Part shown: in pieces, positions 8,569 through 28,763 of the stretch
Numbering within the stretch: position 1 is the first letter of the stretch
Layout of the letters: each line of letters opens with the position of its first letter
Virus record (IMG/VR): IMGVR_UViG_3300045256_000753
Span: 1 to 64,000 of that record
DNA length: 64,000 nucleotides
From: a virus
Strand: one strand, 5' to 3'
Made by a program: the position numbers and the translations under genes
The notes under the pieces: model-generated
Database searches by the model: none
What the model saw: the letters and a program-made list of their open reading frames with translations, nothing else
Told to the model about the DNA's origin: nothing

Positions 8569-9009
8569 TCAGACCTCGTAGAGCTTGACGTTCCGATCCT
8601 GCGAGGCTTCGTGCGGCTTGCGGCGCTTGATGACGACCGTGTTCTCCGACACGACGCCCAGCATCTTGCGCACGATGGATAGCGCCTTCTCGGCGTCGTA
8701 TTCCTTGCAGGAGAAAGCGTCGAGCGCGAAGTACCGTTGAAGCGGCCACGCGTGCAAGGAGAGGTGGCTCGTCGAGATCACTTGGATCGTCGAGATGCCG
8801 CCCTCGTCTTCGAATTGTCCGGTGAGCTTCACGCGCTCCAAGACGTCCGGATCGACCGGCACTTCGTAGACCTGCACGTCGTCGAGGGGTTTCATGTCGA
8901 GCGCCTTCACGACGTTCTCGAACATCTGAGTCAGCTTCTCACGCGTGAAAACGGATGGATCGGATACACGGGCGTCCATCACAATGTGCAAACCGGCCGA
9001 ACTGGACAT
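8569..9009 (-). CDS. speD: Pyruvoyl-dependent S-adenosylmethionine decarboxylase proenzyme-like protein
   Basis: GLHIVMD N-terminus; GGISTIQVISTSHLSLHAWP...ALDAFSC matches the SpeD signature SHxSxHxWP...DxFxC. Confidence 0.88.
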   Translation of the reverse strand: MSSSAGLHIVMDARVSDPSVFTREKLTQMFENVVKALDMKPLDDVQVYEVPVDPDVLERVKLTGQFEDEGGISTIQVISTSHLSLHAWPLQRYFALDAFSCKEYDAEKALSIVRKMLGVVSENTVVIKRRKPHEASQDRNVKLYEV

Positions 9010-9099: not shown

Positions 9100-9708
9100 T
9101 CACCAGAACGAAAAGTAAAGCGCCGCTTCCGGATTCGAACGCCACGTACCCCATGCGAGAGCGTACCCAGCGTAGAGACCGAAGTTCTTGGTCACGTCGA
9201 AACCAAGACCGCCTCCGAATGATCGGACGCCAACGTAAGCGTTGAGGTTGAAATATCGAAAGAAGTAAAACGGCTCGAACATCAATCCAGCATCGAGGCC
9301 GCGTCCAGCGTCTTTTTCTTCGAGGGCTTCGACCGGAAGATATCCGACCGCCGCCTTGAGTCGAAAGCGGAAACCCCACGTCGGCGGAACTTCCCGCGCG
9401 ACTTGCAGCTTCACGTTCGCATTCGCGTCGATGTGGTAGTTGCACCAATCGACGTGCATCTTGTACGGCTTCGGATCGTTGCCCGATCCGTAGACCCGCC
9501 CGTCCTTGTCCACGACGATGACCACGGGGTCGAGCGCGAACGTCGGCGGATTCTCCGACCGGCACTTCTGATCTTTCAGAAGCTGGACGAAGACTTTCAC
9601 GTCTTCTGCCGGCACGCAGGTCGCGCCCGCCTCGCAGGTGCCCTGAGCGAGTGCTGGCCGGGCCAGGAACATGCTGAGAAGAGCGAGGAAGGCGAGAACG
9701 CGCTTCAC
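9100..9708 (-). CDS. Exported protein with C-terminal outer-membrane beta-strand region
   Basis: Sec signal MKRVLAFLALLSMFLARPALA; four Cys in the N-terminal half; alternating-hydrophobic strands in the C-terminal half ending ALYFSFW. Confidence 0.75.
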   Translation of the reverse strand: MKRVLAFLALLSMFLARPALAQGTCEAGATCVPAEDVKVFVQLLKDQKCRSENPPTFALDPVVIVVDKDGRVYGSGNDPKPYKMHVDWCNYHIDANANVKLQVAREVPPTWGFRFRLKAAVGYLPVEALEEKDAGRGLDAGLMFEPFYFFRYFNLNAYVGVRSFGGGLGFDVTKNFGLYAGYALAWGTWRSNPEAALYFSFW

Positions 9709-9992
9709 CGGAAGTTCCTCACCATGTGATCCATGTCCTTGAGGAGATGGTCGATCTGGTCGTCGATGTCGTCGAGTTGGTCGGCGAAGTGCTGAATCAT
9801 CTGCGCATTCTTTTTCGCATCGTGATCGGACATGTGCTTCGTCATCATGTCCATCTCTTTGGAGAGACCGTGAAGGACGGCTTTCGCCTGCTCGATCTGG
9901 CGGTCGCCGCCCTTGATGTACTGCTCCGCGTCCTTCAAACGGCTCGCGGGGCCCATGGCGACAACGGTGCGGCGGTCGTAGGAGTAGCTCAT
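9705..9992 (-). CDS. Small helical protein with N-terminal YSYDRR leader
   Basis: MSYSYDRRTVVA... followed by a coiled-coil-like body; 4-nt overlaps with both neighbours. Confidence 0.85.
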   Translation of the reverse strand: MSYSYDRRTVVAMGPASRLKDAEQYIKGGDRQIEQAKAVLHGLSKEMDMMTKHMSDHDAKKNAQMIQHFADQLDDIDDQIDHLLKDMDHMVRNFR

Positions 9993-10267
9993 TTCATCGA
10001 CGCCTTTCCAACAGCTTCGAGCAGCTTGTAGAACTCGGACGACATGCCCATCGCCTTCTCGATGTGCTTGAGCGCTTCCTCGTAAGCCTTCTTGGTCGCA
10101 CCATCGACCAGACCCGCGTGAATGGCATCGTGGAGATCGGTACGCACGTCCCAGTGCAGCGTGTACGCGGCGTCGAGATGGTTGCGAAGATCGGCAAGCC
10201 CTTTCTTCGCGTCCCCCACCGTGTCGGCGACGCGGCGATCGTACGAGTAGCGATCACTTGAAGACAT
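9989..10267 (-). CDS. Small helical protein with N-terminal YSYDRR leader
   Basis: Start moved to ATG 10267 (MSSSDRYSYDRRVA...) with GGAGG upstream; overlaps the previous gene end. Confidence 0.8.
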   Translation of the reverse strand: MSSSDRYSYDRRVADTVGDAKKGLADLRNHLDAAYTLHWDVRTDLHDAIHAGLVDGATKKAYEEALKHIEKAMGMSSEFYKLLEAVGKASMK

Positions 10268-10505
10268 GGCTGCCTCCCGGCTTGTGGCCCCACGTGCCGG
10301 TCTTCGGGTCGAAGCCGATGTTGAACGGACGAAGGCCCTCTTCGATGTGCTTCGCAAGATGGAGCTGGCTCGTCTCGGTCGGCATCGCCCAGCCGCTGCT
10401 CTTGCCGTACATCACGACCTGGTTTGCGATGTAGCCCGCGTCGAGGACGTCATCCTCGTACCGGTTCGGGGCAGCCCCGATCTTGCTACGATCGTACGAG
10501 TACAT
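10254..10505 (-). CDS. Small protein with N-terminal YSYDRS leader
   Basis: MYSYDRSKIGAA...; starts 1 nt after the upstream stop. Confidence 0.8.
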   Translation of the reverse strand: MYSYDRSKIGAAPNRYEDDVLDAGYIANQVVMYGKSSGWAMPTETSQLHLAKHIEEGLRPFNIGFDPKTGTWGHKPGGSHVFK

Positions 10506-10506
10506 C

Positions 10507-11070
10507 TCAACCCCCGTATTTCTTCAAAAGATCATCCACGGTCTGCGCCGGGATCTTCGAATCGTCCTTCACGGTCACGGCGATGACGCTCGGCTTGACG
10601 ATGACCACGGTATCCACGTCCTTCGCCTTCACTCCGTCCGGGAGTTGCACTTCGACCGGTTTGTCTGCGCCGGGCGGCGTGAAGGTCACGGTGTCCGGGT
10701 TCGAGAAGAGCCCGGGCTCGTCGATGGGAACGACTTGGGCTTGGACGTCGCCCTTCGAGTCGGGTTGTCCGATCGGAATGATCTTGCCATCCTTGTCCAC
10801 CCGCCCCTCGGGCACCGTGTTGGCGATGTCGATCGCCTTGTGCTCTGGATCCTTCTTGCCGAAGAGCTTGCCGAGCAGACCCCCAATCTGGAGTTCCTTC
10901 CAGCCAATCGCCACGAGCAGCACTGCCACGATGACGATGACCAAGGCCACCCCCGGTGCGACCAGCTTGGTGCCGATCCAACGGAGGATGGTCTTGATGT
11001 GCTCCCAAACCGTCGCCCAGAAGCCCGGGCCTTGCGGTTGCGGAGCCGGTTCGGGAGTCTGATCGGGCAT
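10507..11070 (-). CDS. Membrane-anchored protein with extracytoplasmic domain (candidate inner spanin-like)
   Basis: Start at ATG 11070 by TGATG coupling to the holin stop (MPDQTPEP...). One strong TM segment VAPGVALVIVIVAVLLVAIGW then a soluble beta-rich domain. Confidence 0.7.
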   Translation of the reverse strand: MPDQTPEPAPQPQGPGFWATVWEHIKTILRWIGTKLVAPGVALVIVIVAVLLVAIGWKELQIGGLLGKLFGKKDPEHKAIDIANTVPEGRVDKDGKIIPIGQPDSKGDVQAQVVPIDEPGLFSNPDTVTFTPPGADKPVEVQLPDGVKAKDVDTVVIVKPSVIAVTVKDDSKIPAQTVDDLLKKYGG

Positions 11071-11522
11071 CACTTCCCCTGAGCTTCGTCGGGCGGAAGT
11101 TCCTCGGCCTTGCCTGCGGCTGCCGGAGGCGGGGGATCCGAAGTCTTGCCGCCGAGGCGCTGAGCGATCTTCGACGCCATCGCCGATTGGCTGTCGGCCG
11201 CGATGTTCAACCAGGCGCGGAAGCGACCGTAAACCCAACCGCTCGCGCCGCCACAAATGAGGCCGTAGAACATGCGCGCCGCACCCGACTCGCCGAGCGG
11301 CTCGGGCCACGGGAATTTCTTGGCCACGAGAGCAATGATGAGGCCGGTTCCGATCGGTCCGAGATGCAGACCCAGCTCGTTCCAGAGAACGTTCTGCTTG
11401 GCACCCTTCCAGAAGGCCTCCACGATCGTCCGAACGACATACGTCAGCATGTAGACCCCGAGGCAGAACAGAGCTGTCTGCCACGTGGCGAAAATCTCGA
11501 AAGCCTTGTCGAACGACGGCAT
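11070..11522 (-). CDS. Holin-like membrane protein
   Basis: Start ATG 11522 (MPSFDKAF) with GAGGTGA upstream; three hydrophobic segments and a charged C-terminal tail; 150 aa; follows the tail genes. Confidence 0.6.
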   Translation of the reverse strand: MPSFDKAFEIFATWQTALFCLGVYMLTYVVRTIVEAFWKGAKQNVLWNELGLHLGPIGTGLIIALVAKKFPWPEPLGESGAARMFYGLICGGASGWVYGRFRAWLNIAADSQSAMASKIAQRLGGKTSDPPPPAAAGKAEELPPDEAQGK

Positions 11523-11549
11523 TTCACTCACCTCTGTGGGTGTCCGCCG

Positions 11550-11559
11550 ATAAGAAGAA
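11550..11559 (-). promoter_or_regulatory. Candidate late promoter TTCTTCTTAT upstream of the holin
   Basis: Identical 10-mer at 28754-28763; 27 nt from the start codon. Confidence 0.55.
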
Positions 11560-28730: not shown

Positions 28731-28763
28731 CCTCCGTTCAAACGGAGGCTTTCATAAGAAGAA
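28731..28763 (-). promoter_or_regulatory. Candidate late promoter TTCTTCTTAT plus RBS-occluding hairpin
   Basis: TTCTTCTTAT-GAAAG-CCTCCGTT-TG-AACGGAGG-AG-ATG. Confidence 0.6.

Follow-up and report, generated by a model that had tools for sequence, protein, structure and literature searches.

The window analysed here is a 64,000-nucleotide stretch of viral DNA, positions 1-64000 of the 101,637-bp IMG/VR record IMGVR_UViG_3300045256_000753 (G000), and it carries on its minus strand three small, consecutive open reading frames (ORFs), genes A, B and C, whose products begin with the same short peptide, hereafter the tag (Table 1). The genes are coupled head to tail: the reading frames of A and B overlap by 14 nt, an ATGA joins B to C, and a GTGA joins C to the gene that follows it. 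A purine-rich, Shine-Dalgarno-like stretch lies upstream of each of the three, with GGGAGG found 6 nt 5′ of the ATG at 10267 in the case of B. An earlier note on this DNA had drawn attention to the shared starts, and our analysis confirms them, with M-x(0-5)-YSYDR(R/S) present at all three N-termini and encoded by the very codons quoted there.

A conserved N-terminal peptide on three unrelated proteins

Across the 101,637-bp record, a six-frame search for Y[STA]YD[RK] gives three matches, namely the starts of A, B and C. Chance would yield 0.03 occurrences by residue frequencies and 0.025 by Markov simulations, and the presence of the tag at these starts is real, not accidental. When the window is compared with its closest relatives, the third positions differ at all six tag codons and the first and second positions are fixed; across tagged genes, the Ser codon is TCN in some and AGY in others. 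Position 2 of the tag is free to vary (S, D, T, N, H, V, L), the residues Y, Y, D, R and R are fixed, and the tag always stands in frame with the start codon. The contention of the earlier note that the peptide rather than the DNA is conserved is therefore upheld by synonymous variation at every codon and by the use of both Ser codon families. The tag is very probably a functional signal that acts at the level of the peptide and at the N-terminus, common to unrelated proteins of one jumbo-phage clade and maintained by selection.

The bodies behind the tag share no detectable similarity, as the same note had proposed. BLASTP among A, B and C finds nothing outside the tag, and hhalign of the family profiles pairs only 14 N-terminal columns for A versus C and only 11 for B versus C. 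A and C were modelled separately with AlphaFold2 (AF2), and the fold comparison concerns these two proteins. The model of A, with a predicted local distance difference test score (pLDDT) of 65, pairs two helices with a beta-hairpin and leaves residues 1-17 unstructured, at scores below 50, while that of C (pLDDT 85) is a helical hairpin formed by helices 15-51 and 57-94, with residues 1-5 below 50. In both predicted models the tag would lie outside the fold and be disordered. Full-length tandem paralogy of the three genes was rejected, as the alignable columns are confined to the N-terminal 11-14 and the folds of A and C differ. The small body of A ends in a conserved W-x-HKPGGSH; as a separate observation, W-x-H-K-P-G-G-S-H is invariant at the end of all A homologues (window 10254-10300). 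For A, B and C there is no match in Pfam, in PHROGs or among polyvalent-protein domains, and neither a protein atlas nor a Foldseek search of BFVD gave a usable lead for A or C.

Homologues keep the tag while the bodies diverge. Four database homologues of A (56-63% identity) and six of C (47-61%) retain it with small changes, namely Y, F or H at position 1, S or D at position 2 and R or T at position 6, and one A homologue begins M-TYDRR, the first aromatic residue having been lost. For B, the searches yielded one relative alone, which is encoded by the sister phage G001 and is 31% identical. Two rearrangements reveal that the position of the tag matters. In G001 the A body sits behind a 140-aa N-terminal extension with coding-type codon bias and is without the tag, and in a second relative, represented by two assemblies (L002 and L003), A and C are fused into one protein with a tag at its N-terminus only, the tag of C having given way to an unrelated linker. 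Because the tag is gone both from the extended A and from the internal C of the fusion, it must be at the N-terminus. The same fusion suggests that A and C work together. As such, the locus holds a peptide that exists as a distinct element, is selected for its amino acids, depends on its position and is carried by unrelated bodies.

The tag across a clade of uncultured jumbo phages

The record is about 21% complete by CheckV and represents a fragment of a jumbo phage of ~450 kb, so that what the earlier note had called the full genome is not one; the count of three tagged genes stands, but for about one fifth of the phage. Five IMG/VR genomes of 350-435 kb each encode a baseplate wedge protein 57-65% identical to that of the record, and the entire record is syntenic with 120-213 kb of G003, a complete 435-kb genome with terminal repeats. 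The nearest cultured relative is the Acidobacteriota phage Tunturiibacter phage Tunturi_5, with 28% identity in the baseplate protein, and a 485-kb uncultured phage, LR745208.1, reaches 34%. In both of these phages the only matches to the tag are at chance level and not N-terminal, and the N-terminal tag was not found. Searches of the GenBank phage collection (DNA and protein) and of genome contigs returned nothing, leaving the clade without a cultured member. The DNA sequencing runs that hold the record come from hot-spring, microbial-mat and soil metagenomes, and no RNA is among the runs listed for it. PHROGs offer no match for any tagged body and almost none for the rest of the phage, and our literature search found no paper with the motif in a phage context.

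A DNA pattern for Y-x-Y-D-R, TAYNNNTAYGAYCGN, has 3, 4, 6, 12 and 5 matches in the five related genomes, and its backward control has none. About 25 of the 30 matches follow an in-frame ATG or GTG at a distance of 1-3 codons, in ORFs of 69-506 aa. Three exact-pattern scans of IMG/VR gave N-terminal matches in 17 of 42, 10 of 46 and 11 of 46 cases, all of them on contigs of 75-450 kb with 52-65% GC, and the remaining matches are scattered as expected by chance. The search for the motif at other N-termini that the earlier note had called for thus turned up 3-12 tagged genes per related genome and, over all the searches, about 45 unrelated body families (70-506 aa) without BLASTP similarity between them, counted after removal of duplicates and three false positives. 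Together they give the consensus M-x(0-2)-Y-[S>D,T,N]-Y-D-R-[R>T]. In three proteins, B included, the full tag is preceded by a degenerate second copy; the other two begin M-YTYDRT-TF-YSYDRR (L081) and SYERR...YDYDRR (L069).

Among the false positives, L011 and L025 were discarded for weak starts or internal matches, and L197 for an internal YSYDRR that is a chance match in an unrelated small phage. The L197 match lies in a single 691-aa protein (L197:4690-6765) that by its sequence resembles a protease-scaffold-capsid fusion, with the GGFLV motif of its capsid domain some 20 residues further on.

A few of the tagged bodies in relatives can be assigned to a domain family. L065 matches the ADP-ribosyltransferase (ART) family ART-PolyVal (PF18760; E 3e-11, 44.6 bits versus a cut-off of 31.2), and when 18 tagged proteins were scanned together ART-PolyVal was found above the cut-off in one of them (E 5e-9); this second protein is taken to be L132 because its start resembles that of L065. 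L079 matches the SprT-like family of zincin peptidases (PF10263; E 4e-7, 30.5 versus a cut-off of 25.6). An exhaustive search with the ART body retrieved 186 relatives, many of them inside polyvalent proteins of 2,000-5,500 aa, a class predicted to be packaged and injected together with the phage DNA (Iyer et al. 2017, PMC5512222). The effector-type cargo envisaged in the earlier note has support to this extent, in that some of the relatives' bodies, ART-PolyVal and SprT-like, are of a kind thought to be injected (PMC5512222). The tagged proteins of relatives share with polyvalent proteins (PMC5512222) their ART-PolyVal and zincin peptidase domains, but they are separate small proteins, each with a tag of its own, and A, B and C match no such domain.

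The solo relatives of the ART also led to a second N-terminal peptide. Two more of them carry a Y-x-Y-D-R-R tag, and nine or so carry, in the same place, a different peptide of the form [RK]-[VI]-A-x-[RK]-aromatic-[LI]. This second peptide, in the slightly wider form [RK]-[VI]-A-x-[RK/A]-aromatic-[LI], is likewise found 3-9 residues after the Met on unrelated proteins, four of them in G003, and the reversed control occurs at no start. One of the four G003 proteins is a 1,095-aa, Lys/Glu-rich protein whose gene belongs to the head cluster and lies a few genes away from those for the scaffold-like and capsid proteins. Another N-terminal motif, M-x-R-[YF]-D-I, is absent from G000 and G003.

The variable slot and its surroundings

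The A-B-C slot extends over window 9709-10506, between a conserved membrane-protein gene and a conserved gene with a signal-peptide-like start, and its content changes from phage to phage. It is occupied by A, B and C here, by an extended A together with B′ and C′ in G001 (L001 9551-10867), and by a single gene for a 533-aa protein in G003 (L089 16002-17603). In its variability the slot is similar to the internal-protein loci of T4-type phages, a likeness that does not by itself imply late expression.

Table 1. Positions of the genes, tag codons and associated elements (window coordinates unless a locus or genome is named)
Feature	Position	Strand	Remarks
Gene A	10254..10505	-	83 aa; start M-YSYDRS-KIGA; ORF and translation
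Gene B	9989..10267	-	92 aa; start MSSSDR-YSYDRR-VA; helical by sequence
Gene C	9705..9992	-	95 aa; start MS-YSYDRR-TVVA; tag, then predicted helical hairpin
Tag codons of A (Y-S-Y-D-R-S)	10485..10502	-	Directly after the ATG
Tag codons of B (Y-S-Y-D-R-R)	10232..10249	-	From the sequence
Tag codons of C (Y-S-Y-D-R-R)	9969..9986	-	From the sequence
Degenerate half-copy of the tag in B (S-S-S-D-R)	10250..10264	-	Just 5′ of the full copy; read from the sequence
Conserved single-pass membrane protein, directly upstream of A	10507..11067	-	Hydrophobic stretch in the translation; G003 homologue 64% identical
Conserved protein with signal-peptide-like start, directly downstream of C	9100..9708	-	G003 homologue 48% identical
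Promoter-like motif CTTCTTAT	11550..11557	-	~25 nt before the ATG at 11525 of a membrane-protein gene
Second peptide in G003 (loci L088, L094, L098)	103160, 108723, 224285, 287552
Solo ART homologues with the second peptide	P0015, P0016, P0032, P0034, P0056, P0067, P0072

Upstream of the slot, the unit that includes A, B and C may begin at the promoter-like motif CTTCTTAT. At 26 gene starts in G003, compared with 3 in a reversed-sequence control, the more general form of this candidate promoter, [CT]T[CT]TT[AG]T, has its end 10-20 nt 5′ of the start codon; it recurs at window 28754-28761 on the minus strand. It lies upstream of 8 of 42 tagged genes versus roughly 4% of the genes of G003. Structural-region and metabolism genes alike stand behind the motif, and no expression timing can therefore be assigned from it.

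Some further features of the surroundings deserve mention. The product of window 11070-11525 is a holin-like multi-pass membrane protein, and its G003 homologue (L089:18157-19890, 577 aa) has a long C-terminal part fused to it with a J-domain-like H-P-D motif; this fusion makes a simple holin role doubtful. On the other side, a gene for S-adenosylmethionine decarboxylase adjoins the slot (window 8569-9009), and the G003 copy of that gene is located at 315256-315615, ~185 kb away. In the sister phage, a gene that by its sequence is GIY-YIG homing endonuclease-like (L001:11473-12258) lies between a beta-barrel-like gene and speD, and it is absent at the corresponding place in the window.

Proposed cargo loading and competing readings of the tag

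In phage T4, a capsid-targeting sequence (CTS) loads the internal proteins IPI, IPII and IPIII and the protein Alt into the head, Alt being both an ADP-ribosyltransferase and a classical CTS cargo. We tentatively favour the view that the tag works in a comparable way, as a portable address label that loads cargo into the virion. In this mechanism, M-x(0-2)-Y-x-Y-D-R-[RT] would be the portable N-terminal address tag of one clade of phages of roughly 350-480 kb; flexible and placed at the start of otherwise unrelated proteins, it would be read by a common phage-encoded partner, which may load the tagged proteins into the assembling virion, whence they would enter the next host along with the DNA. 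A, B and C would then be three cargoes in a variable slot between two conserved genes of membrane or envelope type. The likeness to the T4 CTS lies in a short N-terminal peptide on unrelated, fast-changing small proteins and on an ADP-ribosyltransferase, in the variable slots and, by analogy, in the proposed role of head loading for co-injection. The best indirect support for an address label comes from the ART body, which appears with interchangeable leaders, one of them tied by its gene neighbourhood to the head module.

The two systems nevertheless differ, and the tag is not homologous to the T4 sequence. It has no sequence similarity to the T4 CTS and lacks L/I-x-E, and in the genomes searched the clade has neither a T4-type protease nor a gp23-type capsid protein; PF07068, the family of the latter, is absent from G000, G003 and G005. 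The capsid protein of the clade is instead HK97-type, with a Gln-rich, scaffold-like protein nearby in the head cluster of G003. Of the features that define a T4-type CTS, then, the shared N-terminal peptide is present, and the cleavage motif, the protease and the capsid type are not.

A number of results weigh against loading into the head. The T4-type protease Peptidase_S77 (PF03420) was not detected in G000-G005, nor was an HK97-type S78 head protease in the genomes searched. No conserved cleavage motif follows the tag in 33 families, and the motif itself is absent from the HK97-type capsid and scaffold-like proteins of the complete G003. A ClpP-like gene of G003 (274091-274564) lies far from the head genes and 3.5 kb from a tagged gene. 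The tagged genes of relatives are dispersed, some among early-looking genes and one amid nucleotide-metabolism genes, and the late synthesis proposed in the earlier note finds no support. In P0014, a database homologue, the tag stands at residue ~136 of a 394-aa call, which reflects either a genuinely internal position or a start codon wrongly called. Finally, most tagged bodies, those of A, B and C included, have no recognisable function.

A variant of the loading mechanism that dispenses with proteolysis is suggested by the encapsulins, whose cargo-loading peptides are short, disordered and terminal and dock cargo inside an HK97-fold shell without cleavage. By analogy, the tag could direct cargo along a packaging route not recognised before, in a megaphage clade with an HK97 capsid, binding directly to a receptor on the capsid, portal or scaffold, although we regard this specific form as rather unlikely. 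Both systems combine a short, disordered terminal peptide with an HK97-type shell, and docking of the tag is an analogy only; encapsulin peptides, in contrast, are usually C-terminal, have another consensus and serve bacterial nanocompartments rather than phage heads.

The tag might instead be a docking peptide for some other partner, as a degradation or timing signal, a handle for a chaperone, an adaptor or a host factor, or a signal for localisation within the cell, and we hold this to be almost as probable as loading into the virion. It would explain the conservation of the peptide, its dependence on the N-terminus, its unrelated bodies and its disorder equally well, and it sits comfortably with tagged genes that are scattered, sometimes among metabolism genes, and with the failure to find a head protease or a cleavage motif. 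Against it, no conserved candidate partner was found, and the ClpP-like gene is absent from G002 and G005 and so occurs in one of three genomes. A degradation signal gains nothing from ClpP, and the variable offset from the Met speaks against a classic N-end-rule degron. Export signals of the Tat or Sec type were rejected, since no hydrophobic core of at least 12 residues is found and, in most of 33 families, R-R is followed by polar or small residues. The ART-PolyVal and SprT-like bodies, moreover, fit injected effectors better than they fit a docking role of this kind.

Closer to the T4 model is the proposal of the earlier note that the tag is a cleavable leader, cut by a prohead protease at an Ala 2-4 residues past the motif. 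Ala is indeed the commonest residue at +2 to +4, in roughly 30% of the 33 families, and it is present there in A, B and C. The enrichment after the tag, however, is weak, extends to Ala, Ser and Thr alike and fixes no residue or position, and no protease of the S77 or S78 family was detected in the genomes searched. Cleavage motifs of the T4 type and the phiKZ type recur in other head proteins, unlike the tag, of which the scaffold-like and capsid proteins hold no copy, and the tandem tags point to a binding epitope, which they fit better than a precise cut site. The predicted cut after Ala has therefore not been borne out, the data give no support for a protease that removes the tag, and we consider the cleavable leader improbable.

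It is very improbable that the tag is a passenger without peptide function, carried along as part of a promoter or start cassette, as a recombination anchor or as a relic of tandem paralogy. The adjacency of A, B and C would fit such an origin, as would the excess of the promoter-like motif 10-20 nt upstream of tagged genes. The upstream DNA, however, differs between tagged genes, the two Ser codon families and the synonymous variation betray selection on amino acids, and orthologues about 50-60% identical retain the tag, which stands on bodies that differ by profile and fold. An RNA-level element, such as a translational operator or a structure of the start region, would account for a tag that is always at the start of the coding region, but the wobble and TCN/AGY variation, the freedom of position 2 beside fixed Y, Y, D, R and R, and the constant reading frame exclude it for practical purposes and also make a DNA cassette unlikely.

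If the tag does load the virion, six residues would suffice to list every protein that this uncultured giant-phage clade delivers to its host. The injected proteome of phages of 350-480 kb, ADP-ribosyltransferases and peptidases included, would become readable from sequence, and candidate effectors of host takeover and counter-defence, most of them without a known fold, could be catalogued from it. Should the tag serve another purpose, it would still mark a set of about 45 protein families that are handled together, and as a short linear motif it makes the search for its receptor straightforward. Loading into the virion would further extend capsid-targeting tags beyond T4-type heads and their protease, and a minimal tag would become available with which to bring foreign proteins into HK97-type capsids.

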